A model generated the notes under the pieces. The model was not told the DNA's origin and did no database searches. It worked only from the letters and a program-made list of their open reading frames with translations. A stretch of 63,778 bases of DNA, counting the filler, from Acidimicrobiia bacterium (lineage in GTDB: Bacteria; Actinomycetota; Acidimicrobiia; Spongiisociales; CAZKJJ01): assembly GCA_046759765.1 (NCBI GenBank). It is 4 parts of 4 records of this genome, joined end to end, with 100 filler letters (N's around TTAATTAATTAA, not from the genome) between each part and the next. Parts side by side here need not be neighbours in the genome. Positions count along the whole stretch, not along the records: positions 51,043 to 63,778 come from JBHICV010000060.1; 3 more parts are not named here. One strand, written 5' to 3'. The translations under genes were made by a program, and so were the position numbers. The first letter of the stretch is position 1. Each line of letters opens with the position of its first letter. This document shows, one piece after another, positions 17,228 to 63,778 of this stretch.

Positions 17228-17327
17228 NNNNNNNNNNNNNNNNNNNNNNNNNNNNNNNNNNNNNNNNNNNNTTAATTAATTAANNNNNNNNNNNNNNNNN
17301 NNNNNNNNNNNNNNNNNNNNNNNNNNN
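17228..17327. other. artificial contig linker
   Basis: N44-TTAATTAATTAA-N44 (stops in all six frames). Confidence 0.98.
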
Positions 17328-34097: not shown

Positions 34098-34197
34098 NNN
34101 NNNNNNNNNNNNNNNNNNNNNNNNNNNNNNNNNNNNNNNNNTTAATTAATTAANNNNNNNNNNNNNNNNNNNNNNNNNNNNNNNNNNNNNNNNNNNN
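34098..34197. other. artificial contig linker
   Basis: N44-TTAATTAATTAA-N44. Confidence 0.98.
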
Positions 34198-50942: not shown

Positions 50943-51042
50943 NNNNNNNNNNNNNNNNNNNNNNNNNNNNNNNNNNNNNNNNNNNNTTAATTAATTAANN
51001 NNNNNNNNNNNNNNNNNNNNNNNNNNNNNNNNNNNNNNNNNN
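50943..51042. other. artificial contig linker
   Basis: N44-TTAATTAATTAA-N44. Confidence 0.98.
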
Positions 51043-51081
51043 CTCCGGAGGCCGGTGCTCTATCCCCTGAGCTACGAGGGC
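51043..51081 (-). tRNA. tRNA-Arg(CCG), 5' half (cut by contig end)
   Basis: minus strand GCCCTCG TA GCTC AGGGGATA GAGC A CCGGC CT-CCG-GA G: acceptor strand, D-arm and anticodon loop. Confidence 0.9.
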
Positions 51082-51212
51082 GTGTGACCTGGGAGTTAGT
51101 GGCTGGACGCTCATAGTACAGGTCGGCCTCGACGCCGGGCCGAGGGCCAAGTGGTGCTACCGACGCATTCGTTACTATCGGCGCGTCAATCCGGGCGAGA
51201 ACGGAGGGTGCG

Positions 51213-52271
51213 CTGACGATTCCATTTCGCATCGGTGTCATGCAGCTCACGATGGAGCCTCTGGCTGAGATCGTCGAGCATGCCCGGGCCATGGACGCCC
51301 ACGGATTCGACACCATCTGGCTGGCGGAGGCCTATCCCTGGTGGCGCAAGCACTCGATGGAGGCGAGGTCTTCGACGGCGCTGTCGGCTGTCATCGGCAG
51401 GGAAACCGACCGCATAGCAGTCGGCTGGGGCATCATCTCTCCTTTCACGCGCCACCCCATCCAGGTGGCAATGGACGCTCGGGTGACGCAGGAAGCCGCC
51501 GGGACAGGTCGCTTCTATCTGGGGCTCGGAGCCTCGAAGATCTTCATGGGGGAGATCGGTGACCCCGGGCTGCCCCTCACCGCCGTCGTGGAGAGCATCC
51601 ACATCGTTCGAAAGATCCTGGCCGGAGAGGCCATCGACTTTGAGGGCAAGGTCTTCAACGCTCGAGTGCCCCCTATGCCGCCCGACACGGATGCGCCGCG
51701 GGACCCCGTACCCATCTATATGGCGGGCACGGGTCCCCGCATGCAGCAAACCGCGGGCGAAATCGCGGAAGGGCTGCTGACACCCAGCATCACCACACCC
51801 GATTTCGTGAGGTATGCAAAGGAGAACCTGGTCACCGGTGCCCGCAGCGCCGGCCGTGATCCGGACCAGATCGACATCGGTTGCACCATCGTCGCTTCGA
51901 TCGATCACGACCGGGGCGAGGGTCGAGACGGAGCCAGGGAGATCGCCGGCATGTACCTGGCCAATAAGGTCCAGAACATCCGGGGATCCGCGGACGTGCT
52001 GCTCGAGAAGGCGGGTCTCTCGTTCGATGAGATTCGCCCCATTGCCGAGGCGATGGAGCGAGGAGGGCGCATGGCCGCCAAGGACCAAGTGACGGATGAC
52101 ATCCTCGACAAAACGCGGCCCATCGCAGGAACTCCGGATGATTGCATTGAGGCCATCCAGGCCTATCGGGCCGCCGGTTGCACCCAAATAATGCTCGAGC
52201 TGTGGGGCGCCGAGCGAGAGAAGCAGCTGGAGCTGTTCGCCCGGGCGGTCCTACCGGCGTTCAAGGAGTGA
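51213..52271 (+). CDS. LLM class flavin/F420-dependent oxidoreductase
   Basis: IWLAEAY, GIISPFTRHP, LGLG, MAGTGP, AGTPDDC; first ATG is 51240, but an in-frame CTG at 51213 follows GGAGG. Confidence 0.88.
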   Translation: MTIPFRIGVMQLTMEPLAEIVEHARAMDAHGFDTIWLAEAYPWWRKHSMEARSSTALSAVIGRETDRIAVGWGIISPFTRHPIQVAMDARVTQEAAGTGRFYLGLGASKIFMGEIGDPGLPLTAVVESIHIVRKILAGEAIDFEGKVFNARVPPMPPDTDAPRDPVPIYMAGTGPRMQQTAGEIAEGLLTPSITTPDFVRYAKENLVTGARSAGRDPDQIDIGCTIVASIDHDRGEGRDGAREIAGMYLANKVQNIRGSADVLLEKAGLSFDEIRPIAEAMERGGRMAAKDQVTDDILDKTRPIAGTPDDCIEAIQAYRAAGCTQIMLELWGAEREKQLELFARAVLPAFKE

Positions 52272-53524
52272 AGAACGTGGACCCAAAGCTGGCGCAAGAG
52301 GTCATGTCCTGTGTCGACCGCGATCGCCTCGTGGCGACCGCTTCCGACCTGGTTGCCATCTCCAGCCCCACCGGCTTCGAGGAGGAAGCAGCTGAATACC
52401 TCGCCGGCGTCATGGGCGAGATGGGGCTCGAGGTGACGCTCCAGCCCGTAGAGGAAGGACGGGCTAATTCAGTCGGGCGCCTACGAGGCGCCGGAGTGGG
52501 CCCTTCCCTGATGTTCAACGGCCACCTCGATACGTCGTACTCGGGCGCAGAGCCTTGGCTCGAGGGCGCGGGGTATCGGCCGGAACCCCTGATCCAGGAC
52601 GATGTGCTGGTCGGGCTCGGGATCATGAATATGAAGGGGGCGGTCGCCTGCTACGTGGAAGCTGTCCGCGCGCTGCTAGATGCTGAGCTCGCTTTCGGGG
52701 GCGATGTCGTCATCGCCGGAGTGGCGGGGGAGATTGAGAAGGCGCAGTGGGCCCCTGAAGTGTGGGGTCGTGAGTTCCGCGGATACGGATCAGGAACGCG
52801 CCATCTAGTCGTTAACGGCGTCGTCTGTGACGCCTGCATCCTCGGCGAGCCGACCGAGGAGAGAATCGTGCTCGGCCACTGGGGCAGCATGTGGGCCCGG
52901 ATATCAACCACCGGGCCGTTCTTTCACAGCGCCTTCAGCGAGGGCCGGCTGGCGGAGAACTCGATCATCAAAATGCAGGAGGTCGTCTCGGCCGTCCGAC
53001 CCTGGCTCGGCGAATGGGAGGAGCGGACGACGTATCAGGACCGGAGGGGGGTGGCGAGCATAGGAGCTATCCGGGGCGGGTTTCCGTGGCGGTTGAGCCG
53101 AACTCCGGGCCAGACACACTTGTTCCTTGATCTTCGAGTGCCGCCGTCGCTTCCGATGGTCGAGGCCGATCGGTCATTCCGGGAGCTCGTACGATCGTTG
53201 GAGGACAAGTTCCCCGACTACGGGATCGAGGGAGAGGTGTTCGTGACGGTGCCCGGCTCTGAGATAGAGGAGTCACATCCACTCGTAGCCGCAGTCTCGT
53301 CCAGCCACGAGCTGGTCCACGGCGAACCACCCGTCCGCGACTACGTTCGCTGGGGTTCGGACGCTTCCACCCTAAGCCGGTATGGCATCGCGTCACTCAA
53401 CTACGGACCGATCGCCAGCGCCCTACCCGGGCCAGAAGGAGAGCAAGTCCCGATCAGCTCGCTGGTGGCCACGGCCAAGTCGTATGCGCTCGCTGCGGCC
53501 GAGTTCTGCGGAGTGGGCGCGTGA
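52268..53524 (+). CDS. M20 family (ArgE/DapE-like) hydrolase with atypical metal site
   Basis: SPTGFEE, FNGHLDT, GIMNMKG, GEIE, LGEPT; GTG overlaps LLM stop. Confidence 0.88.
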   Translation: MKNVDPKLAQEVMSCVDRDRLVATASDLVAISSPTGFEEEAAEYLAGVMGEMGLEVTLQPVEEGRANSVGRLRGAGVGPSLMFNGHLDTSYSGAEPWLEGAGYRPEPLIQDDVLVGLGIMNMKGAVACYVEAVRALLDAELAFGGDVVIAGVAGEIEKAQWAPEVWGREFRGYGSGTRHLVVNGVVCDACILGEPTEERIVLGHWGSMWARISTTGPFFHSAFSEGRLAENSIIKMQEVVSAVRPWLGEWEERTTYQDRRGVASIGAIRGGFPWRLSRTPGQTHLFLDLRVPPSLPMVEADRSFRELVRSLEDKFPDYGIEGEVFVTVPGSEIEESHPLVAAVSSSHELVHGEPPVRDYVRWGSDASTLSRYGIASLNYGPIASALPGPEGEQVPISSLVATAKSYALAAAEFCGVGA

Positions 53525-54408
53525 AGCTCGTGACCTTCGAGGATCAGTCCGGTGCTCAGCACCCAGGCGTTCTGCTCGACCAAGAGGTCGTGCCGCTGGA
53601 CGGCCCGGACATGAGGTCGGTTTTCGAGCGGGGCTCCGTTGTCTCTGAGGCCCAAGACGCGAGCGGTCCCGGACTACCTCTCACCGAGGTAACGCTCAAG
53701 GCCCCGATCATCCCCAAGAAGTTCTTCCACACCGCCGGCAACTTCCGCGAGCACGAGGAGGAATCCAAGCGGGTGGGCTGGTCTCACGAGATCGCCCCCT
53801 GGATCGTCTTCTTTCAGAACGTCGACGCCATCATCGGGCCCGACGCTCCAATCGTCTATCCGGATCACCTGACCAAGGAGCTCGACTACGAGCTGGAGCT
53901 CGCCGTTGTCATCAGCAAGCCCGGCAAGCACTTCGGACCCGATGAGGCCCGGGACTACATCGGAGGCTTCGTCATCTTCAACGATGTGACGGCACGTGAC
54001 GTCCAGCGGGAGGAAATGCGGTCAGGTGTCTTCAGCTTCTGCAAAGCGATCGACACGTTCTGTCCGCTGGGACCGTGGATCGTGACGCCAGATGAGGTCG
54101 GCAACCCACATGACCTGGCGATGGAGCTCCGGGTCAACGGGGAGCCCCGTCAGCAGTCGCACTCCAGTCACATGTCGGTGACGATTCCGGAGATCATCGC
54201 TCACTACTCGCCCATGGGCTACAGCGCCGGCGACGTGGTCTCGACCGGAACTGTATCGGGCGTGGCCGCCTTCCAGGACGACGCCGAGTCCTACTACCTG
54301 AAGCCCGGGGATGTGATCGAGTGCGAGATAGAGAGGGTCGGCGTCCTTCGCAACCCGGTCATCTCCTGGGAAGAGGCATACGGCCGGCCTTCCCCAACGC
54401 CTGCCTAG
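53521..54408 (+). CDS. fumarylacetoacetate hydrolase family protein
   Basis: LDYELELAVVI, NDVTARD, KAIDTFCPLGP, GDVVSTGT. Confidence 0.93.
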   Translation: MKLVTFEDQSGAQHPGVLLDQEVVPLDGPDMRSVFERGSVVSEAQDASGPGLPLTEVTLKAPIIPKKFFHTAGNFREHEEESKRVGWSHEIAPWIVFFQNVDAIIGPDAPIVYPDHLTKELDYELELAVVISKPGKHFGPDEARDYIGGFVIFNDVTARDVQREEMRSGVFSFCKAIDTFCPLGPWIVTPDEVGNPHDLAMELRVNGEPRQQSHSSHMSVTIPEIIAHYSPMGYSAGDVVSTGTVSGVAAFQDDAESYYLKPGDVIECEIERVGVLRNPVISWEEAYGRPSPTPA

Positions 54409-54416
54409 GCGAGTCG

Positions 54417-55583
54417 GTGCCATACCCCGTCGATGAGGTCAAGCTGAACCGGGTCAGGGCGCTTCTGGATGCCCAGGGTCTCGACGCCCTCGTCGTCAGG
54501 TCCCCCGACAACGTCGTCTACTTGACCAACTACTGGCCCATGAAGGGTTACGCCTTTGCGATCTTTCCCCGCCTCTGGGAGCCAACCCTCGTGGTCCTTG
54601 AGCCACAGGAAACTGAGGCCAGACGGATGGCATGGACCCCGGACGTGCGGCCGTTCCGCTTCTATGACAGCTCGGATCCCAGGCCTCCCACCGCCCGGGC
54701 GCTCGACAAGTGCTTGGAGGTCCTGCGCGAGAGGGGCCTCACCGGGCGGATCGCCGTCGAGCTGACGCAGGGGAGCCAAGGCGCTGATCGGATGGCGGGT
54801 GAGCCCACCGTCTACACGAAGGATTACTTCTCGGCGTTCGACGAGGCGGCCGAGGTACTCGACGCGGTGCCGTTGCTGACCGAAGCGCGCATGATCAAGA
54901 CCGACCAAGAGATCGAGCGGATGAGATTGGCCAATGAGCTGGCGGCCTTGGGTCTCGAACACGTACGGGACCGCATCGAGGTCGGCATGAAGACCTCCGC
55001 GGTGGCGGCCATGTTCGAGGGCCACGTCCACGAAATCGGAATCGGATTCGAGGGGAAAGTCGATATGGCACGGGCTTTCTCGTTGGTCTGGTCCGGTCCG
55101 GAGATCCGCACGTTCACCCCGACCAGGGACTTCCCCGTCGTTGCCAACGAGCCCACCTTGTTCGAGATCTGGGTCTGCGTTGACGGCTACTGGAACGATC
55201 TGACCAAGAACATGGTCGTGGGCAAGCTGACTCCCCGGTACGAGCGGCTACTCGAGGCCATGCTCGGGGTTTGGCACGAGGCCATTTCGTTCGCCAAGGC
55301 CGGAGCAGAGTTAGGTGAGCTCGATCGGATGATTCGGGAGGGCATCGTTGCCGCCGGCTATGACGAGCCTTCCCATCCTGTGTCCCACGGCGTCGGCGCA
55401 CGAGCCCACGAGCCGCCCTGGCCTCACCAGGCGGGCGCCGGCAACATGGAGGCGGGTATGGTGCTGGCGATCGAGCCCGGCACGTATTTTCCCGAAGGCG
55501 GCGGTCTTCGTCTCGAGGATGACTTTCTGATCACGGCGGACGGCAACGAAAAACTATGCAGGTACCCGGATGACTTCCGCTGA
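54417..55583 (+). CDS. M24 (Xaa-Pro peptidase-like) family protein
   Basis: RMIKTDQEI, GYWNDLTK, HGVG..HEPP, IEPG, LRLEDD. Confidence 0.9.
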   Translation: MPYPVDEVKLNRVRALLDAQGLDALVVRSPDNVVYLTNYWPMKGYAFAIFPRLWEPTLVVLEPQETEARRMAWTPDVRPFRFYDSSDPRPPTARALDKCLEVLRERGLTGRIAVELTQGSQGADRMAGEPTVYTKDYFSAFDEAAEVLDAVPLLTEARMIKTDQEIERMRLANELAALGLEHVRDRIEVGMKTSAVAAMFEGHVHEIGIGFEGKVDMARAFSLVWSGPEIRTFTPTRDFPVVANEPTLFEIWVCVDGYWNDLTKNMVVGKLTPRYERLLEAMLGVWHEAISFAKAGAELGELDRMIREGIVAAGYDEPSHPVSHGVGARAHEPPWPHQAGAGNMEAGMVLAIEPGTYFPEGGGLRLEDDFLITADGNEKLCRYPDDFR

Positions 55584-56770
55584 TGCTTGACCGATCGAAG
55601 ATATGGACGGGCGACCTCAACGCCCGGGCGGTGGATACCAGCCCGTTCCAGAAGGCGGGCCCGGTGGGCCTCTACGACACAACGCTCCGGGACGGCGAAC
55701 AGACCGTCGGAGTTGTGCTCGGTCCGGAGACCAAGCTGGAGATAGCCAGGGCGCTCGACGAGCTCGGAGTCGATCGGATCGAGGCCGGGTTTCCGATGGT
55801 GTCCGTCGACGATGCGAAGGCCTATGAGCTGATCCTCGAAGCTGGGCTAAGCGCCGAGATCTGGGGCTTCTCCCGGGCACTGCCAGGCGACGTCGATCAG
55901 CTGGTGTCGCTGGGGGTGCGCCACGCGGTGATCGAATCTCCTGTTTCCGACGGAAAGCTGGCCGCCTACGGCATGAGCCGCGAGAAGGTCACCGATCGAA
56001 TCCGGAGCGCCGTCTCCTACGCCAGCAGCGAAGGGATAACGGTCTGCTTCTTCGGCGTCGACGGAACCAGGGCCGATCCCGATTTCCTTGCGGAGGTATA
56101 CGCGGCTGCGATCGACGCCGGGGCTAAGGAGCTGGCGGTAGTGGACACACTCGGTATCGCCTCTCCCGAAGCAGCCGCCTTCCTCGTGAGGACAAGCCGC
56201 GAATCAGTCGGCGACGACGTACCTATCCATTGGCACGGCCACAACGACTTCGGGCTGGCAACGGCGTGCGCGCTCGAGGCGGTCCGCGCCGGCGCCACCT
56301 GGATTCAAGGAACGATCAACGGGATGGGGGAGCGCGCCGGCAACACCAACTTGGGGGAGTTCGCGCTCGCTCTCGAGGCCCTGTATCACGGTGCGACGAA
56401 TCTCAGGTTCGAGAAGCTGAACGAGACCGCCAAGCTGGTGCAGAGACTGTCGGGCTACGACCTCGAGCCCTGGAAACCTGTCACCGGCGAGAACCTGTTT
56501 CGCAGAGAGAGCGGGGCCGTCGCCAGCCAGTTCCACGACCCGCCTGCGATCGAGCCTTACTCGTCGGAGCTGGTGAAGGCACAGAGAGCCATCGTGCTCG
56601 GCAAGAAGAGTGGCCTTGACAGCATCAAGATAAAGCTCGACGAAATGGGGCTCGAGGTTCCCGAGGATCGGCAGCCGGACCTTCTGACAGCCGTGAAAGA
56701 GCTTGGGAGCGCAGAGCAGCGGCTCGTCAGCGATGAGGAGTTCCGAGAGCTAGTCGCCAACCTGACGTGA
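55583..56770 (+). CDS. homocitrate/isopropylmalate synthase-like DRE-TIM enzyme (no regulatory domain)
   Basis: DTTLRDGEQ, IEAGFP, HGHNDFGLA, NGMGERAGN, LGKKSG. Confidence 0.9.
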   Translation: MLDRSKIWTGDLNARAVDTSPFQKAGPVGLYDTTLRDGEQTVGVVLGPETKLEIARALDELGVDRIEAGFPMVSVDDAKAYELILEAGLSAEIWGFSRALPGDVDQLVSLGVRHAVIESPVSDGKLAAYGMSREKVTDRIRSAVSYASSEGITVCFFGVDGTRADPDFLAEVYAAAIDAGAKELAVVDTLGIASPEAAAFLVRTSRESVGDDVPIHWHGHNDFGLATACALEAVRAGATWIQGTINGMGERAGNTNLGEFALALEALYHGATNLRFEKLNETAKLVQRLSGYDLEPWKPVTGENLFRRESGAVASQFHDPPAIEPYSSELVKAQRAIVLGKKSGLDSIKIKLDEMGLEVPEDRQPDLLTAVKELGSAEQRLVSDEEFRELVANLT

Positions 56771-57717
56771 CTTTCGATCGAGTGTGCATCGTCGGAGCCG
56801 GGACGATCGGCAGCCTGTGCGCGGTGCACCTCGCCCAAGTCGCCGAAGTCTCGGTGCTGGTTCGTCGGGAGGAGCACGCCCGAGCTCTGACCGAGAGAGG
56901 CTTGAGGGTGACGGGCAAGTCCGAGTTTCGATCTGAGCTCTTCGCCACGACCGACCCGACGGCCATCCCCAGTGCCGGGCTGGTGATCGTCGCCACGAAG
57001 GCGACCCAGCTCCACGAGGCCGTCGCTCCACTGAGTGGGTCGCTGCCCGAGGCGATATTCATGACGATCCAGAACGGGATCGGCGCCGAGGAGGTAGTGG
57101 CGTTCTACGGAAGCTGGCCGATTGTGTCCTCGGTGACCTTCATGAGCGGAACGCGGCACACCGACGACCACATCGAGTACGAGCTCGACACTGCCACCTG
57201 GATGGGCCCGTTCCATCCCAGCGGCACGTCCATTGAAGACGTCGAGAAGGTGGGCGACACCTTCGTCAAAGCCGGCCTCAAAGTGGAGGTACTGCCCGAC
57301 CTACGTCCTGCGCAGTGGTCGAAGCTGATCTTCAACTCGGTGGTCAACGGCGTCGCCGCCCTAACCGACCTGCCCCATGTCGGCCTCTTTGCCCGGCGGG
57401 ACCTGCCGACTGATCTGGGCTTCCTCGTCTGGGACCTGATAGAGGAAGGCAAGGCGGTAGCCCGCGCTCTCGACATCGAGCTCTTTGAGGACCCGTGGGA
57501 GATGAACGTCGAGGCCGTATCACACGGCCAGACCGATTACGACGAATACGCCCACGTTCCCTCGATGCTGGCCGATGTGAGGGCAGGGCGTCGAACTGAG
57601 GTCGACTTCATCATCGGATCGCTGGTGAGAGAGGCGGACAAGGCAGGGGTGGATGTTCCCCTGAGCCGAGCGCTCTATCGGCTAGTGAAAGCCCGCGACG
57701 GTTCCTACGACGACTGA
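56767..57717 (+). CDS. ketopantoate reductase (ApbA/PanE) family protein 1
   Basis: VGAGTIG, IQNGIG, WSKLIFN, SMLADV, RTEVD. Confidence 0.9.
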   Translation: MTFDRVCIVGAGTIGSLCAVHLAQVAEVSVLVRREEHARALTERGLRVTGKSEFRSELFATTDPTAIPSAGLVIVATKATQLHEAVAPLSGSLPEAIFMTIQNGIGAEEVVAFYGSWPIVSSVTFMSGTRHTDDHIEYELDTATWMGPFHPSGTSIEDVEKVGDTFVKAGLKVEVLPDLRPAQWSKLIFNSVVNGVAALTDLPHVGLFARRDLPTDLGFLVWDLIEEGKAVARALDIELFEDPWEMNVEAVSHGQTDYDEYAHVPSMLADVRAGRRTEVDFIIGSLVREADKAGVDVPLSRALYRLVKARDGSYDD

Positions 57718-57729
57718 GGGGTTAACGAC

Positions 57730-58650
57730 GTGCAAGTCGGTGTCATCGGTTGCGGTGCGGTCGGAAGCCTCTTCGCTGCCCACCTCGCCGGGCTCGAAGA
57801 TGTCGAGGTGTGGGTATACGACGTAGACGAGGAGCACGTAAAGGCCATCAACTCCGGCGGCCTCCGCCTCACCGGAGTAGGCGAAGTTCACTCGCACCCC
57901 ACCGCCACGACCAGCGCGGCCGACCTACCGGCGCTCGACTTCGGGATCGTCGCCACGAAGGGGATGCATACCGAAGCGGCCGTCGCTGCCACGGCCAAGG
58001 CGTTCGAGCAGGGGGCGGTCTGCTCGGTTCAGAACGGGGTCGGCAACGAAGAGGTGATCGCACAGCACGTGACCAGCGTGATAAGAGGCACTACCTTTCC
58101 CGCCGGGCACGTGCTCGGTCCCGGAGTGGTCCAGTGGGACACGGCCGGGGCAACCTGGATCGGCCCGTTCGAGCCTCGCCCGGCCTCCATGGAAGACGTC
58201 CAGATGCTTGCGTCCGTCCTCACCCGATCGGGAATGGAGACGGTGGCTCTCGAGGACGCTCGGGGTGCCCAGTGGACCAAGCTGGTCTTCAACGCCGCCA
58301 GCAATGCCCTTTGCTCGCTCACCGGCCTGGCGCACGGTCGGGCCTGTCTCCACCCCGACGTCCGCTGGGTAATGGACGAGGTGATCGAGGAAGGAAAGTC
58401 GGTGGCTGCGGCCCTTGGGATCGAAATGGAGAAGGACCCGGCGGTGCTGCTCGAAGAGAGCATCGAAGTCGCCTTGGACCACAAACCGAGCATGCTCCAG
58501 GACGTGCTGGCTCACCGTCCCACGGAGATCGATCAGCTCAACGGCGGGATCTGCCGGTTCGGGGACGAGGTGGGAGTGCCGACACCGCTCAACCGGGCAG
58601 CTTGGTACCTCGTCAGGGGGTTGGAGGCGTCGTGGCAGGAGGGGGAGTGA
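57730..58650 (+). CDS. ketopantoate reductase (ApbA/PanE) family protein 2
   Basis: IGCGAVG, VQNGVG, WTKLVFN, SMLQDV, TEIDQLNG. Confidence 0.9.
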   Translation: MQVGVIGCGAVGSLFAAHLAGLEDVEVWVYDVDEEHVKAINSGGLRLTGVGEVHSHPTATTSAADLPALDFGIVATKGMHTEAAVAATAKAFEQGAVCSVQNGVGNEEVIAQHVTSVIRGTTFPAGHVLGPGVVQWDTAGATWIGPFEPRPASMEDVQMLASVLTRSGMETVALEDARGAQWTKLVFNAASNALCSLTGLAHGRACLHPDVRWVMDEVIEEGKSVAAALGIEMEKDPAVLLEESIEVALDHKPSMLQDVLAHRPTEIDQLNGGICRFGDEVGVPTPLNRAAWYLVRGLEASWQEGE

Positions 58651-58654
58651 GCTC

Positions 58655-59782
58655 ATGGTGAGCCAGACCGAAATAGATCGCCGGTACGCGGTGACTCGAG
58701 CCGCCATGGCGAGAGACGGCGTGGACGCGCTGGCAGTTGTTGGCACCGAGTACACGGGCTTCGAAGGTGCGATCCGCTGGCTATCGGGTTTTCGGATGGT
58801 GCACCGCTATGCCTACGCGCTGCTTCCAACCGACGGCGATCCGGTGGCGATCTTCCCCTCCGAGGCCCGGTATGTGGGTGCGCATGGAGAGTGCTGGATT
58901 TCGGAGAAAGTCTTTGTCGACACCCCGGGCGCCTGGATTCGCGACCTCGCTGACGCCCGCGGCTGGAAGAGGGTTGCTGTGTACGGACTCAACTTCGCAA
59001 TGCCTGTTCGCGATTACATGGCACTTTCCGCCGGCGACTTCGAGATCGTGGATTACGACCAGCCCTTCGACCTGGTTCGGGCACCCAAGAGCGAGGAGGA
59101 GTTGCCCCTCGTCCGATCGAGCTTCGACCTGAACGAGCAAGGCTTCTGGGCCACCTTGCAGGCTTACGCACCGGGAAAAACCGAAGCAGAGATCATGGCA
59201 CCTGCCGAGGAGCTCTTCGTGCGAAGCGGAACCACACGCACGACCATGAACATGGTGCTCTCCGGCCCGCATGGCAATGCCGGTCCCGAGTTCAAGCATC
59301 CCGACCCGGTGCGGCCGGTCGAGCCGGACGACCTGTTGCTCTACTCCATCGAGATCGCCGGTCCGAGCGGTTATTGGGCCGAGTTCGCCCGCCCGATCTC
59401 CCAGGCCGGCCTGAGCCCAAGCACCGGCAAGATCATGGAGGCCTACCAGGAGTGCTTTGAGCGGGCCCGCTCGTCACTCCGGGCTGGCAACACCGCCCAT
59501 GACGTCCACACGTCGGCCTTCGGCGCCTTCGAGGGCTTGGACGTCAAACCCGGCCATGTGACGGGGCACTCGATCGACATGATCATGGTCGCCCATCCCC
59601 GCATCGGGGAAGGCGTGGACACGGTCCTGGAAGAGAACATGATCATCTCGATCCACCCGCACGTCGTCACCGCGGATGACAAGCACTGCCTCTACATGCA
59701 GGAGACGTTCCGAGTCACAGCCGACGGCGGAGAGCAGATGTCCTCGGTGCCGATCGTGGCTTTTGACGGTACCGAGCACTAA
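58655..59782 (+). CDS. M24-fold, creatinase-like hydrolase lacking canonical metal ligands
   Basis: creatinase-type N-terminal domain; PKSEEE, GYWAEFAR, GHSIDM, SIHPH, QET. Confidence 0.85.
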   Translation: MVSQTEIDRRYAVTRAAMARDGVDALAVVGTEYTGFEGAIRWLSGFRMVHRYAYALLPTDGDPVAIFPSEARYVGAHGECWISEKVFVDTPGAWIRDLADARGWKRVAVYGLNFAMPVRDYMALSAGDFEIVDYDQPFDLVRAPKSEEELPLVRSSFDLNEQGFWATLQAYAPGKTEAEIMAPAEELFVRSGTTRTTMNMVLSGPHGNAGPEFKHPDPVRPVEPDDLLLYSIEIAGPSGYWAEFARPISQAGLSPSTGKIMEAYQECFERARSSLRAGNTAHDVHTSAFGAFEGLDVKPGHVTGHSIDMIMVAHPRIGEGVDTVLEENMIISIHPHVVTADDKHCLYMQETFRVTADGGEQMSSVPIVAFDGTEH

Positions 59783-59791
59783 ACGGTCGTC

Positions 59792-60187
59792 CTACTCCGC
59801 CACCATGGCGGTGCACTCAACCTCGATCAGTAGTCCCTGCACAGCCAGCCCCGTAACGCCGATGATGGTCTGTGCGGGGTGGTCGGTGCTGCCTGTCACC
59901 TCTTCGATCGCTTTGGTGATGATCTCGTACTCGGTCGGCTGCAGCGTATAGATCGTGCGGCGAACTATGTCGTCCCAAGAAACGCCGGCGGCCTGAAGAG
60001 CCACGCCCAGGTTCTCCATCGCCGCTTTGGTCTGCAGGAACAGGTCGTCGCCGCCGACGATGTTGAACTGCGGGTCGAGTGCTACTTGACCGGCAAAGAA
60101 CACCTGACGCTGGCCCTTCCCGACCGTGATGTGGCTGAAGCCGGGAGCCGGATGTAATTCGGGCGGATTCTGTGACTCGCGAGGCAC
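59792..60187 (-). CDS. RidA/YjgF family protein
   Basis: GFSH, FAGQVA, PAQTIIGVTGL, LIEVECTA. Confidence 0.9.
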   Translation of the reverse strand: MPRESQNPPELHPAPGFSHITVGKGQRQVFFAGQVALDPQFNIVGGDDLFLQTKAAMENLGVALQAAGVSWDDIVRRTIYTLQPTEYEIITKAIEEVTGSTDHPAQTIIGVTGLAVQGLLIEVECTAMVAE

Positions 60188-60242
60188 GGGTAACTCCTTC
60201 GTTTACGACTCGGTCAGCCTATGCGGCGGCAACGGACCGTGC

Positions 60243-61820
60243 TCAGACGAAGCGAGAGGCGACCATGAATCCCGAGCCTCCGCCGAGGCCCGGCCCCGGA
60301 TGAGTCGAGGCCCCGATGTGATAGAGGTCCTTGACGGCAGTCTCGTGGTTCTTGGATCCCGGCATGGGGCGCCACACCAGGAATTGATCGATCGTGCAGG
60401 CGCCGCTGTAAGGGTCGCCACCGATCAAGTTCATGTTGATGTTCTCGAGATCGGCCGGAGAAAAGGCGCGGCGGCCCACGAGCGCGCTATCGAGGTTCTT
60501 GATATGAACGCCCAAGCGCGCCTGGATGCGATCCGCGTAACGCTCCCGAACCTCCTCGGTCCATGATCCATCCGGCGGCACGGGTATCTCCCCCCGGGCG
60601 TCGCCCTTGATGCGCGCCGGCAGCTCCTGGAGTTGGATCCAGAGAATCGAGCCATCCTCCGGTGCGCGGCTCGGATCGGCTGACGTTGGCTGACCGACGA
60701 CGATCGTCGGAGCGTGGGGCAGAAGCCCTCGCTCGGCCTCGTTTACCGCTCCGGAGACCCCGTCCAGCCCGGGTGTCAGGTGCACCATCGCAACGTCCTC
60801 TAGCTCGGGATGCTCCCACTCCGGGGCTTGGTTCAGCGCAAAGTGAATCTGCATGTCCGAGCGTCCGTACCGGTAGGAGTCAGCTCGGGACTTCACGTCC
60901 GACGGAACGCTGGCGTCGCGGAGCAGCCGGCCGTACAACTGAGTGGGAGTCACGTTGCAGATGACGGCGGCCTCGGCGCCGTACGCATCTCCCGTGGCGG
61001 TGGCAACTCCGTTGGCTCGGCCATTCTCGATGATCACCACGTCGACGTCGGCGTTGGTAACGGTCTTTCCGCCGTTGTCTTCTATCAGCTGCCTGAAAGC
61101 GTCGATCAGGCGAGCGCTCCCGCCCTCAACGAGGGGCATTCCGGCCAGAGTGACGGTCCCGATTATCAGCTTGCCCATCATCCCGGAGTAGGCGTCGTCG
61201 GGTCCGAGGCCGGCGTGGAGAACCCAAGGAGCGATGAGGGCCCTGGTCAGCTCGCTGCGGAAGTCGCGCTCCAGCCATGTCCGGCAGGTCTCGAGGGACT
61301 CGCCGAAGAACGTGAATGTCCCCAACAACCCCCGCTTACGCCAGTCTTTGTACAGGGCCCTGGCGGTCTTGCGGCCCCAGACTTCGTTGCCCAGCAGCGC
61401 GAACGCAATGTCGGAGTTCTCGGCGAAGAAACCGCCGACCGCGGCGCCGTATCTCTCGCCCTCGCCGGCCGCCAATTCGTCGAGCCGACGGTTGTTCTCC
61501 TCGTCGTCCATGGTGAAGACGAGGGTGGATCCGTCCTCGGTGATGACCGCGGTCGGCTTGTCGGTCTTTACGAACTCAACCCCCCGGGTGAGGAGGTCTT
61601 CGCCCAACGCGGCATAGGCAGGAGAGGTAACGAAGAGCGGATACCAGGAGGACAGGACCTCATGGATGTAGCCAGGAAACAGCTCCTCGGCCCGAACACA
61701 GCCTCCGAGGCGCTCGTTTCGTTCGAGAACGACAACGCTATTGCCGGCGCGAGCGAGCATCGACGCGCAGACCAGCGAGTTGATCCCACTGCCGACGATT
61801 ACGAAGTCGAAGCGCTCCAT
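60243..61820 (-). CDS. phytoene desaturase-like FAD-dependent oxidoreductase
   Basis: IVGSGINSL, LERNERLGG, GGDPYSG, GASTHPGPGLGGGSG. Confidence 0.9.
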   Translation of the reverse strand: MERFDFVIVGSGINSLVCASMLARAGNSVVVLERNERLGGCVRAEELFPGYIHEVLSSWYPLFVTSPAYAALGEDLLTRGVEFVKTDKPTAVITEDGSTLVFTMDDEENNRRLDELAAGEGERYGAAVGGFFAENSDIAFALLGNEVWGRKTARALYKDWRKRGLLGTFTFFGESLETCRTWLERDFRSELTRALIAPWVLHAGLGPDDAYSGMMGKLIIGTVTLAGMPLVEGGSARLIDAFRQLIEDNGGKTVTNADVDVVIIENGRANGVATATGDAYGAEAAVICNVTPTQLYGRLLRDASVPSDVKSRADSYRYGRSDMQIHFALNQAPEWEHPELEDVAMVHLTPGLDGVSGAVNEAERGLLPHAPTIVVGQPTSADPSRAPEDGSILWIQLQELPARIKGDARGEIPVPPDGSWTEEVRERYADRIQARLGVHIKNLDSALVGRRAFSPADLENINMNLIGGDPYSGACTIDQFLVWRPMPGSKNHETAVKDLYHIGASTHPGPGLGGGSGFMVASRFV

Positions 61821-61881
61821 ACGCGGACACTAACAACGCGCCCATAAGCATTTCGCGGAGCTATCACAGAAAGGAGACCGG

Positions 61882-62334
61882 CTAGGAGAGTTCGCTGGCG
61901 GCGGCCTCGAAGAACTCCTCCATGATCGTGTCGGCCTTCTTGCGGATGGTCGACGTGCCCATCGCCGCCACCGCTCCCAACACGTGATACGTGCCCTCGA
62001 TGGTCATGGTCGATCCTGTTTCGGTTTCCGCAAGATCCATACGGGCGTCGACCGAGATGGTCGTGCCGACGTGACGATCCTGCCCGCTCCCTTTGAAGTG
62101 GATGCTTCGTTCAGGGTCCACGTCAGTGACTTCGACGTCGACGTCGGCGTTCAGCTTGAAAGGTCCAAACTGGTCTTGGAGCACCACGCGGTACGTCTTC
62201 AGATGCTCGATCTCGCTCACGTCGTGGGCGACGGTCACCCAGGTAGCCATACGCTCCACATCGGTCAGGACCGACCAGCACGCCGCAGGGGGGCTCGCCA
62301 CGTCGAGTGTCCGGGTGAACTCGGCAGACGGCAC
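61882..62334 (-). CDS. CoxG/SRPBCC family protein
   Basis: CWSVLTDVERM, GPFKL, FKGSG, GAVAAMG..IRKKA. Confidence 0.85.
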   Translation of the reverse strand: MPSAEFTRTLDVASPPAACWSVLTDVERMATWVTVAHDVSEIEHLKTYRVVLQDQFGPFKLNADVDVEVTDVDPERSIHFKGSGQDRHVGTTISVDARMDLAETETGSTMTIEGTYHVLGAVAAMGTSTIRKKADTIMEEFFEAAASELS

Positions 62335-62347
62335 TTGGGCCCGCTGT

Positions 62348-63778
62348 TCAGCTCTTCGACACGACCGAGACGCCTCTGCCCTCCGCGCCTCCTTCGTGCC
62401 CGAGGAGACCGAAGACACGCTCGGGAGGGTTGTGAGAGTCGTTTATCAGCGGCGCACCCGAACCAAGTGCATCCTGTATGGCGGAACACAGTGTGTGCAG
62501 CGGGGCGCCACCACCTTCTCCCATCCCCTTCGCTCCGGTGCCGGTGAATGGCGACGGAGACACCTGGTAGTCGGTTCTGATGTCGGGGATGTCGACGGCG
62601 GTCGGAGCGTGATAGAAGAGGAAATTGTTGGTCAGTAGCTGGCCGTCCTCGTCGTAGTCCATGATCTCATGCAGCGCCGCCCCGATGCCGTGGGCCGTGG
62701 CTCCGTGGACCTGCCCCTCCACCACCATGGGATTGAATCGGGTACCGCAGTCGTCGACCGCCGCGTAGTCGAGGATCTCGACCTTCCCTGTCTCGTCATC
62801 CACCTCGATGACCGCGGCATGGGTCTGCGTCGAATAGGTGAGAGTCAGGTTTCCGTACTTCTTGTCGGTGTCCGGAACCTCGAACGGTGCCACGTACACG
62901 TGACGACGGGTGAGGCTCACCTCGTTCGCCAGCTCGGGCGGCAGCACGGCGTTGTTCCAGTAGACCATTCCGGCGACGCCGATCAAGGGGATGAACCGCT
63001 CCTCGTCTCCCTTGACCATCGCTCCGCCGTTGCCGAGCTCGATCTCATCCTCGGACGCCCCGAGAGCGAAGGCAGCCACCTTGACGATGTCGTCGCGCAG
63101 CTCTTCGCACGCTCCGATCACGGCATTTATGCCGGTCACGGCGAACTGGCTGGCGTAGGTGCCGGAGAAGCCGATGTAGGCACTGTGCGCGGTGTCGAAG
63201 CCGGCCCGGACGCGGACATTCTCGGGACTGACCCGGAGTATGTCCGCCGCCACCTGGGCCGCGGTCGTCTCGTGTCCCTGGCCCTGGGAGATCGTTCCCA
63301 GCCTGAGGACGATCTCGCCATACAGGTCCAGCTTGGCGGTGCAGGCTTCTCCGTTGCCGGAGAACGGCAGGTGCGGGTTGAGAATCCGCGATTGACCGAA
63401 GTTGTTAGTGCCGGAGTCGAGCGTGGTCCCAATCCCGATGCCGATCCTCCGCCCCTCCTGGCTGGCTTCTTCTTGGAGCTTGCGTGCTCCGTCGTAGTCG
63501 ATCAGCTCTAGGACCTTGTCCAACGCGGCAGGAAGATCGCCTGAGTCGTAGACGCACCCGTTGGGCGTCGTATATGGATAGTCGTCGGGCTGGATGTAGT
63601 TCTTCTTCCGGAGCTCGATCGGGTCGAAGCCCAGCTCACGGGCCACGGTGTCGATGATGCGTTCGATCATCCATAGGTGCTGCATCCGCGAGTAGCCCCG
63701 GTTGGGCACAGCCGGACACTTGTTGGTCAGGGTCTCCTTGTAGTCGACCTGGATGTGCTTGAGCTTGTAGCAACCTGG
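62348..63778 (-). CDS. xanthine dehydrogenase/CoxL-family molybdopterin-binding subunit, 5' truncated
   Basis: YDSGD, QGQGHET, DDCG, VEGQVHG, GAKGMGEG; active-site loop PNRGYSR. Confidence 0.92.
   Translation of the reverse strand, partial: PGCYKLKHIQVDYKETLTNKCPAVPNRGYSRMQHLWMIERIIDTVARELGFDPIELRKKNYIQPDDYPYTTPNGCVYDSGDLPAALDKVLELIDYDGARKLQEEASQEGRRIGIGIGTTLDSGTNNFGQSRILNPHLPFSGNGEACTAKLDLYGEIVLRLGTISQGQGHETTAAQVAADILRVSPENVRVRAGFDTAHSAYIGFSGTYASQFAVTGINAVIGACEELRDDIVKVAAFALGASEDEIELGNGGAMVKGDEERFIPLIGVAGMVYWNNAVLPPELANEVSLTRRHVYVAPFEVPDTDKKYGNLTLTYSTQTHAAVIEVDDETGKVEILDYAAVDDCGTRFNPMVVEGQVHGATAHGIGAALHEIMDYDEDGQLLTNNFLFYHAPTAVDIPDIRTDYQVSPSPFTGTGAKGMGEGGGAPLHTLCSAIQDALGSGAPLINDSHNPPERVFGLLGHEGGAEGRGVSVVSKS

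Follow-up and report, generated by a model that had tools for sequence, protein, structure and literature searches.

Reductive nicotinate catabolism, known from Eubacterium barkeri and Azorhizobium, relies on a molybdenum (Mo)-containing nicotinate dehydrogenase, a 6-hydroxynicotinate reductase, and an enamidase. Luciferase-like (LLM) enzymes that use the cofactor F420 add hydride to picrate, and the catabolism of ectoine and hydroxyectoine (DoeA/EutD, DoeB/EutE, EutB, EutC) pairs a ring-opening hydrolase of the M24B fold with a deacylase. The 5-nitroanthranilate pathway of Bradyrhizobium sp. JS329 is started by NaaA (PDB 5K8M), which removes the aromatic amino group hydrolytically; a further hydrolysis of the product follows ring fission (according to excerpts of PMC10306065). 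Here, we analyzed a stretch of 63,778 nucleotides (nt) from an Acidimicrobiia bacterium (assembly GCA_046759765.1; hereafter the window), in which eight plus-strand genes, g1 to g8, converge on a minus-strand unit encoding part of a Mo-hydroxylase. The eight genes encode, in order, an LLM oxidoreductase (g1), an M20 hydrolase (g2), a FAH-family enzyme (g3), an M24 hydrolase (g4, or M24a), a DRE-TIM protein resembling isopropylmalate synthase (IPMS; g5), two dehydrogenases of the ketopantoate reductase (KPR, or PanE) family (g6 and g7), and a second M24 protein (g8, or M24b). The genes form a widely conserved operon of orphan and very probably catabolic function; three of its enzymes (g2, g5, and g8) are remodeled, and its chemistry is partly constrained.

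A first-pass annotation of this DNA had proposed eight tightly coupled genes of these families, and all eight assignments were confirmed by Pfam and NCBIfam. When the start codon closest to each upstream stop is taken as the gene start, the successive junctions measure -4, -4, +8, -1, -4, +12, and +4 nt; the longest reading frames of g2, g4, and g8 begin 94, 88, and 236 nt farther upstream, and the short starts agree with where ortholog alignments begin. The operon start formerly placed at 51213 had to be moved, this position being a CTG codon and the earliest ATG, GTG, or TTG lying at 51240. Within the operon stretch we found no terminator-like site (shuffled sequences have a mean of 4.1), and its one promoter-like site, inside g8 at 59616-59643, is at chance level (shuffles have a mean of 1.3). 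The eight genes are almost certainly a genuine operon and a single transcription unit. No curated NCBIfam equivalog cut-off was reached by the eight operon proteins or by fourteen scanned neighbor proteins (TIGR00745, met below, is a subfamily model), and the set matches, as already claimed, no leucine, lysine, or pantothenate operon. A full-text literature search returned no pathway with this gene set, although subscription papers may still describe one.

Co-conservation of the genes in other genomes, set beforehand as the test of the operon claim, was indeed found. A profile search of species-representative genomes confirmed g8 relatives in 589 of 599 candidate stretches, and the best 80 of the 589, all from metagenome-assembled genomes, were analyzed as loci. 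Their genes were called with a simple codon-usage caller of our own and clustered, recurrent clusters were named by Pfam, and twelve window proteins were mapped onto the loci; a well-flanked subset comprises 42 loci, each flanked by 8 kb or more in both directions. Twelve of the 80 loci encode a g8 of 73-84% identity, nine of these being labeled Acidimicrobiia. In the remaining 68 the identity is 51-58%, and the labels are mostly Thermoleophilia, Solirubrobacterales, Gaiellales, or plain Actinomycetota, with one Dormiibacterota and one Verrucomicrobiota. Across the 80 loci the trio PanE-PanE-M24b (g6-g8) is a near-invariant unit. A PanE gene (g7 in the window) lies on the same strand immediately 5' of M24b in 78 of the 79 loci where some gene precedes M24b (own contig counted; median gap -4 nt), and PanE is held by all 42 well-flanked loci.

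The remaining genes follow a different pattern. The quartet LLM1-M20-FAH-M24a (g1-g4, hereafter module A) is complete in 21 of the 42 well-flanked loci, 18 of which also carry the Mo large subunit; no module A gene at all is present in 19, and none of these has the Mo large subunit. Mo genes adjoin module A in at least five distinct arrangements, so that the linkage has outlived rearrangement. The IPMS-like gene is optional (9/21 module A loci; 22/80 overall). Where module A is wholly missing, a xylose-isomerase-like TIM barrel (11/19) and a different LLM (14/19) are frequent. The trio adjoins a transporter in many loci, and Liv-type ABC ATPase genes and GntR/FCD regulators occur in 26 and 13 of the 42, respectively. 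Rather than the single unit of function previously supposed, the operon probably combines two or more modules, which are also found apart. A close g8 relative was present in 10 of 301 sampled genomes of the class (own genome, G000, included), all belonging to one order; the g8-bearing island is an accessory, patchy trait in the class.

Several loci have further features. Linked substrate-binding proteins are encoded at L008:19624-20856 and L011:12972-14156. Contig C285 of the own genome (2.1 kb) encodes ABC ATPases together with a binding protein that shares 70% identity with the one adjoining the Mo genes in locus L008, and probably belongs to the same island, split by assembly. In locus L066 a xylose-isomerase-like TIM barrel and a PanE domain are joined in one 613-aa protein (L066:2685-4526), encoded upstream of the transporter and of the PanE-M24b pair; this fusion hints at a 2-oxo/3-oxo isomerization coupled to a dehydrogenase. 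A 235-aa protein whose match to the tryptophan 2,3-dioxygenase (TDO) model is confined to the model's first half is encoded in 8 of the 80 loci, directly after M24b in L046, L060, L062, L077-L079, and L082 and upstream of g1 in L004; genes for aldo-keto reductase (AKR), ornithine cyclodeaminase (OCD), and PALP proteins often come after it. In a plasmid collection, relatives of g8 and g2 are only 25-31% identical. A remote analogue there, L083, on the Rhizobium leguminosarum plasmid pRltTA1A (157614-167228), consists of GntR, M20, peptide-type ABC transporter, M20, and M24 genes; its second M20 has an Asn / Glu-Leu reduced metal site, and its M24, which is without the E/E/H/H/Q set described below for g8, has lost metal ligands in a different way.

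The first remodeled enzyme is g2. Its best PDB match is 5-nitroanthranilate aminohydrolase (5k8m, 7.8e-41, residues 12-415), the next chain scoring 7.9e-12. It retains H86 and D88; Asn121 takes the position of the bridging Asp, and Glu155-Ile156-Glu157 that of Glu-Glu, and both changes align with the NaaA segments VVNCKG and GEID. These reduced metal-site motifs recur in 29 of 29 g2 orthologs.

The second, g5, shares with the Claisen-condensing DRE-TIM enzymes (LeuA, CimA, homocitrate synthase, and methylthioalkylmalate (MAM) synthase) the fold, the LRDGEQ and HxH site, and the post-HMGL subdomain, and aligns over its full length with homocitrate, isopropylmalate, and methylthioalkylmalate synthases (6e1j, 3a9i, 3rmj, 6ktq). 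The metal/2-oxo-acid site is kept: R36, D37, Q40, T189, H218, and H220 correspond to R89, D90, Q93, T257, H288, and H290 of the Brassica MAM synthase BjMAMS (6e1j). It differs from them in having V159 at the Glu227 position and V313 (with some aligners, a gap) at the His388 position of BjMAMS, Ile or Pro at that of the stacking Tyr399, and no regulatory LeuA_dimer domain; Phe96 occupies a position that is His in homocitrate synthases and Leu in IPMS. The Val changes are common to all 19 cluster-linked orthologs, and among the 120 database proteins closest to g5 Val-Asp is found in 120 and RESGAV in 117. In the Brassica enzyme, activity was undetectable in the variants E227A, E227D, H388A, H388D, H388E, H388Q, and Y399S, and His388 was assigned as the general base for acetyl-CoA (excerpts of PMC11532901). 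We regard g5 as a non-Claisen enzyme because the equivalents of the catalytic Glu and His are replaced by Val, and the acetyl-CoA condensation considered in the first-pass annotation is abandoned on the same grounds, mutagenesis having shown these residues to be necessary. Judged from its residues, g5 binds a metal and a 2-oxo acid and is likely a DRE-TIM-type aldolase, lyase, or decarboxylase, a lyase being more likely than an acetyl-CoA-dependent synthase.

A housekeeping role of g5 as LeuA was also rejected, its catalytic residues being gone and the genome having no LeuC over the cut-off (best 69 bits vs. 560). The protein falls under every IPMS-type NCBIfam equivalog cut-off (best 344 bits vs. 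517), and the operon contains, as stated earlier, no partner of the aconitase type (LeuCD) or of the dehydrogenase type (LeuB). In the own genome, 92% complete, no second IPMS-family gene and no canonical LeuA were found; this may reflect leucine auxotrophy, or the leu genes may lie within the missing 8%. Two LeuB-like genes are present, both below the cut-off. Locus L015 (Solirubrobacterales) has both a canonical LeuA-like gene with HESGIH (L015:383-1957) and a remodeled IPMS-like gene (L015:6733-7974).

The third, g8, has E233, E243, H305, H334, and Q349 at the five metal-ligand positions when aligned to the Pyrococcus prolidase 1pv9, whose ligands we take to be D209, D220, H284, E313, and E327; it is therefore a non-canonical M24 protein. 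All 80 of 80 orthologs keep the E/E/H/H/Q set, and likewise a His-Arg-Tyr triplet of the N-domain. The other M24 protein, g4, is canonical (Asp, Asp, His, Glu, Glu), with ligands D256, D261, H324, E353, and E367 invariant in 33 of 33 orthologs. In a Foldseek search with an AF2 model of g8 (pLDDT 87.9), prolidase, creatinase, DoeA, and DddP scored almost alike, which leaves the fold uninformative on the M24B subfamily. Matches in the ESM Atlas are limited to generic "aminopeptidase P" clusters, and a search of the PDB with the N-domain alone, aimed at an alignment with creatinase, gave no significant match.

The other operon proteins keep more familiar sites. For g1, the sixteen top NCBIfam matches are all F420-dependent LLM families, each under its cut-off, with FMN-type LLM families ranking lower; the own genome encodes CofD (273 bits vs. 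257) and CofH (498 vs. 374) and is predicted from these genes to make F420. In g3, the His78/Glu81 pair and the metal ligands Glu124, Glu126, and Asp155 are accompanied by Lys175, the His/Glu pair and the Glu-Glu-Asp site being invariant in 32 of 32 orthologs; its best NCBIfam match is 2,4-didehydro-3-deoxy-L-rhamnonate hydrolase (146 bits vs. a cut-off of 500). Both g6 and g7, which are 37% identical, exceed the TIGR00745 cut-off of 141 bits. They hold the K..N..N and S..D..E motifs (K186..N190..N194 and S266..D270..E278 in g6), which we take to be the catalytic Lys and Glu motifs of the KPR family. Although they are the sole KPR-family genes over the cut-off in the own genome, which has PanB, the family (E <= 1e-20) went undetected in 50 of the 61 genomes sampled from the order, which suggests that g6 and g7 are pathway genes, not housekeeping ones; a housekeeping KPR role was considered less likely on this ground and for the tie of the pair to M24b. 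A different enzyme presumably supplies pantoate in this order.

The convergent unit (RidA, FAD oxidoreductase, CoxG, and Mo large subunit) was likewise upheld: annotated orthologs match its proteins at 50-75% identity. Neither the FeS nor the FAD subunit of the Mo-hydroxylase is encoded on the operon contig, C60, and relatives show a three-subunit L/S/M layout; a search of the own genome for the remainder gave no continuing contig, the match on C5 differing in gene order. The best PDB match of a full-length ortholog (L004:17664-20135) is quinoline 2-oxidoreductase (1t3q_B, 6.4e-105), followed by CO dehydrogenases and 6-hydroxypseudooxynicotine dehydrogenase. The Mo enzyme thus resembles the N-heterocycle hydroxylases Qor (1T3Q) and Kdh (7DQX) in its best match and in the subunit layout of its relatives, but CO dehydrogenases score almost equally, and a CoxG-like gene stands beside it here. 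Identity as a CO dehydrogenase was rejected: the ortholog is under all curated cut-offs, the best CO dehydrogenase model giving 524 bits vs. 950, and the A/G/S-Tyr-Arg motif of that type was found in 0 of 25 full-length orthologs, the CoxL active-site loop being presumably AYRCSFR or AYRGAGR. For the FAD oxidoreductase, CrtO and CrtI models score well under their cut-offs.

Taken as a whole, the operon is very probably catabolic rather than biosynthetic, a reading already put forward and now favored by the uptake ABC transporters, the GntR regulators, and the patchy occurrence in the class. By analogy with related enzymes, we tentatively suggest that this island of uncultured Actinomycetota catabolizes an imported nitrogen-containing acid, quite possibly an electron-poor N-heteroaromatic or cyclic-enamide carboxylate. 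These findings suit the earlier expectation that the chemistry includes hydroxylation, reduction, amide hydrolysis, and C-C cleavage, with the Mo subunit nearest to quinoline 2-oxidoreductase and tied to g1-g4. In the route that we infer (substrate, reactions, and their order alike), module A and the three-subunit Mo-hydroxylase would act on a pyridine- or quinoline-type ring acid or a cyclic enamide. The Mo enzyme would add a hydroxyl adjacent to the ring nitrogen to give a lactam, and F420H2-dependent g1 would donate hydride and dearomatize the ring. Canonical g4 would then open the lactam or amidine, and NaaA-like g2 would swap a beta-enamine or aryl amine for OH, freeing ammonia. The 1,3-dicarbonyl product would be cleaved or decarboxylated by g3, leaving aliphatic acids and ammonia with no oxygenase involved. 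The nearest analogues of the Mo enzyme, g1, and g2 each bring a nucleophile (hydroxide, hydride, and water, respectively) to an electron-poor ring; with g4 and g3 added, such an oxygenase-free route is coherent. In module B, the invariant core g6-g8, the two PanE-type enzymes would interconvert 2-hydroxy and 2-oxo acids, and g8, with its rebuilt metal site, may hydrolyze an unusual C-N bond. Optional g5 could serve as a DRE-TIM lyase or aldolase on a 2-oxo acid. Since the trio is found without module A, it would act on a substrate of its own or on a common intermediate. That the operon embodies an undescribed, oxygenase-free breakdown of N-heteroaromatic acids by nucleophilic chemistry, coupled to a new PanE-PanE-M24b trio and an IPMS-derived lyase, is a bolder proposition and rather unlikely; a substrate specifically of the nicotinate type is distinctly improbable.

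The proposed steps parallel those of the reductive nicotinate route: Mo hydroxylation, ring reduction, lactam hydrolysis, and enamine hydrolysis with release of ammonia, giving a 1,3-dicarbonyl acid. The enzyme families are nevertheless unrelated. A putative F420 LLM here stands against a ferredoxin-dependent reductase there, and an M24 plus a NaaA-like M20 against an enamidase of the amidohydrolase fold; there is no B12 mutase branch here, and the PanE-PanE-M24b trio has no counterpart there. NaaA of the 5-nitroanthranilate pathway is the nearest solved relative of g2 and shares its reduced metal site, and the hydrolysis after ring fission in that pathway (excerpts of PMC10306065) is also what is proposed here, yet the window contains no cupin dioxygenase or lactone hydrolase, and a nitroaromatic substrate is unlikely. 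With ectoine catabolism the locus shares the pairing of an M24B-fold ring-opening hydrolase with a deacylase, and some relatives have PALP and OCD genes; in contrast, the DoeA models fail, the deacylase is an M20 here, EutA is absent, and Mo, F420, FAH, and PanE genes are additional.

Against the catabolism of an N-heteroaromatic or cyclic-enamide acid weigh several points. For every step it rests on family-level or nearest-relative analogy. At about 30-35% identity to NaaA (by eye from the alignment), g2 may differ in substrate class, and for the Mo subunit there is a further resemblance to aldehyde oxidoreductases and to CO dehydrogenases. The 80 loci were picked by g8 likeness and are mutually related, hence their counts are not independent, and their gene calls come from our own simple caller. 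Since 19 of 42 loci carry the trio with neither module A nor the Mo enzyme, the eight genes need not share one compound. The binding protein of the transporter in one relative is LivJ/LivK-like (8.6e-22), PALP dehydratase (9/42), OCD (7/42), and peptidase genes stand beside the trio in some lineages, and threonine-dehydratase-like, AKR, and TDO-like genes join it in some as well; the LivJ-like protein and the PALP, OCD, and peptidase neighbors point to an amino-acid-like or peptide-like nutrient. No ring-cleaving dioxygenase was found in the window. Together, the LivJ-like protein, the minority neighbors, the missing dioxygenase, and the aldehyde-oxidoreductase option keep three catabolic alternatives alive.

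The first, which we consider unlikely but not by a wide measure, is that an amino-acid-derived cyclic amidine, imino acid, or peptide-like solute is catabolized in the style of ectoine, hydroxyectoine, or hydroxyproline. The M24 enzymes would open the ring or cleave X-imino-acid bonds, the M20 would deacylate, PALP, OCD, and RidA-type proteins would deaminate, the PanE enzymes would handle the 2-oxo acid, and the Mo enzyme would be an aldehyde oxidoreductase. Both M24 proteins share the Creatinase_N / M24B architecture with prolidase, creatinase, and DoeA, yet the DoeA model TIGR02993 gives g4 just 54.8 and g8 28.7 bits against a cut-off of 613. Besides the LivJ-like binding protein, such a pathway would account for the PALP (13/80), OCD (9/80), and AKR (12/80) genes, for M32, M29, and S8 peptidases (about six to seven loci each), and for EutB and EutC models among the matches of the PALP and OCD neighbors. 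However, PALP and OCD are missing from the window and from most loci, and DoeB/EutE, EutA, proline-racemase, and DapA-type genes were seen in none of the loci. The Mo subunit also matches a glyceraldehyde dehydrogenase model (3.6e-137). The NaaA-like metal site of g2 and the strict tie between module A and a Qor-like Mo-hydroxylase would be left unexplained.

A second alternative invokes tryptophan-, indole-, or anthranilate-derived compounds, the NaaA-like M20 deaminating ring-opened intermediates of the kynurenine branch or of quinolone type, and the FAH and DRE-TIM enzymes finishing as in meta-cleavage lower pathways. An anthranilate is the substrate of the nearest solved relative of g2, and the TDO-like gene stands after or near M24b in 8 of 80 loci, yet its product covers just the first half of the TDO model and no ring-cleaving dioxygenase is consistently linked. 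Kynureninase-like class-V aminotransferases occur in five plus four loci and a putative cyclase (PF04199) in two. The closest relatives of the window (L004, L007-L009) also carry genes for a StyA-like oxygenase, a flavin reductase, and an SDR, which are families of the iif indole genes (excerpts of a review, PMC6221969). All these neighbors are confined to a minority of loci and none lies within the window, and a Mo enzyme has no role in known kynurenine routes; we judge this origin of the substrate improbable.

Very improbable, in our view, is the degradation of a pantothenate-like or Amadori-like compound in which a 2,4-dihydroxy or sugar-type acid is bound as an amide; here an amidase would free the acid, PanE would oxidize it to a 4-hydroxy-2-oxo acid, g5 would act as aldolase, and FAH would cleave the diketo form. 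To our knowledge, the sole well-known PanE substrate is precisely a 4-hydroxy-2-oxo acid. The retained 2-oxo-acid site of g5, with Phe96 at the IPMS Leu / homocitrate synthase His position, the best NCBIfam match of the FAH enzyme, a diketo-deoxy-sugar-acid hydrolase, and the xylose-isomerase-like TIM barrel (15/80 loci, fused to PanE in L066) would agree with it. On the other hand, g5 is present in just 22 loci, no sugar transporter or kinase is linked, and the Mo-hydroxylase, the F420 LLM, and the NaaA-like M20 are left without explanation. Finally, that the operon builds a small metabolite (a non-proteinogenic acid or an osmolyte), as once allowed for, is hardly credible: IPMS-like and PanE-like enzymes are classically biosynthetic, but g5 is without the acetyl-CoA-activating residues, and the evidence favors synthesis nowhere. 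The company that the genes keep consists of three hydrolases, a Mo-hydroxylase, GntR regulators, and uptake transporters with their binding proteins, whereas tailoring genes such as those for a ligase, a methyltransferase, or an exporter show no consistent linkage.

The window consists of four whole contigs (C42, C43, C44, and C60) of one genome, artificially joined; synteny across the joins is meaningless. The three spacers (N44-TTAATTAATTAA-N44) occupy 17228-17327, 34098-34197, and 50943-51042, and what lies left of 50943 comes from separate contigs and therefore has no linkage to the operon. C60 spans window positions 51043-63778 (12,736 bp), most of it occupied by the eight genes, in a genome of 2.73 Mb and 308 contigs. 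The tRNA gene announced beside the operon survives in part: the contig end truncates it to a 5' half, with an anticodon loop that reads, by eye, CCG (Arg); a full tRNA gene was not recovered, ARAGORN reporting none across the window and the half scoring under the Rfam gathering score of 29. The sequencing runs listed as containing the stretch are four DNA runs, all of one study, with no RNA runs among them. Coordinates are given in table 1.

Table 1. Features of the operon contig and the evidence for each (positions along the window)
Feature	Position	Strand	Evidence
tRNA gene truncated to its 5' half (positions 1-38 of the 71-position model)	51043..51081	-	Rfam RF00005 19.6 bits, E 0.095
g1, luciferase-like (LLM) oxidoreductase, putatively of the F420-dependent Mer-like type, 343 aa	51240..52271	+	PF00296 (Bac_luciferase) 3.2e-49
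g2, M20 hydrolase, NaaA-like branch, 418 aa	52268..53524	+	PDB 5k8m 7.8e-41
g3, FAH-family enzyme, 295 aa	53521..54408	+	PF01557 2.8e-69
g4 (M24a), canonical two-domain M24 hydrolase, 388 aa	54417..55583	+	PF00557 2.7e-35 and Creatinase_N
g5, IPMS/homocitrate synthase (HCS)-like DRE-TIM protein, 395 aa	55583..56770	+	PF00682 (HMGL-like) 1.8e-64
g6, ketopantoate-reductase-family (PanE) dehydrogenase, paralog a, 316 aa	56767..57717	+	TIGR00745 199 bits
g7, ketopantoate-reductase-family (PanE) dehydrogenase, paralog b, 306 aa	57730..58650	+	TIGR00745 214 bits
g8 (M24b), non-canonical two-domain M24 protein, 375 aa	58655..59782	+	PF00557 1.8e-18
RidA-family protein, 131 aa, convergent with the operon	59792..60187	-	65% identity to L011:18095-18484 (PF01042 2.8e-22)
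FAD/NAD(P) oxidoreductase, CrtI/CrtO-like, 525 aa	60243..61820	-	65% identity to L004:14120-15706 (NAD_binding_8, Amino_oxidase)
CoxG-like protein	61882..62334	-	50-56% identity to PF06240-positive orthologs
Mo-hydroxylase large subunit, C-terminal 476 aa, gene cut by contig end	62348..63778	-	75% identity to L004:17664-20135

Of 8,000 candidates scored, more than 4,000 database proteins fall into the g8 family at E <= 1e-3, and a search with a Solirubrobacterales relative gave more than 6,000 at E <= 1e-80; in the best-ranked matches of both searches every named organism is a metagenome-assembled genome. From this abundance the pathway seems common in Actinomycetota of soil, sediment, and vents, despite which the operon has no cultured model. 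The labels "isopropylmalate synthase", "Xaa-Pro peptidase", and "ArgE/DapE deacylase" are probably wrong for the chemistry of three of its enzymes. Discovery of the substrate would give abundant uncultured lineages a nutrient niche and could expose new F420-, M20-, M24-, and DRE-TIM-based reactions; if the oxygenase-free reading is true, new reactions would be assigned to three large, mislabeled clades of enzymes from Actinomycetota that live uncultured in soil and sea.

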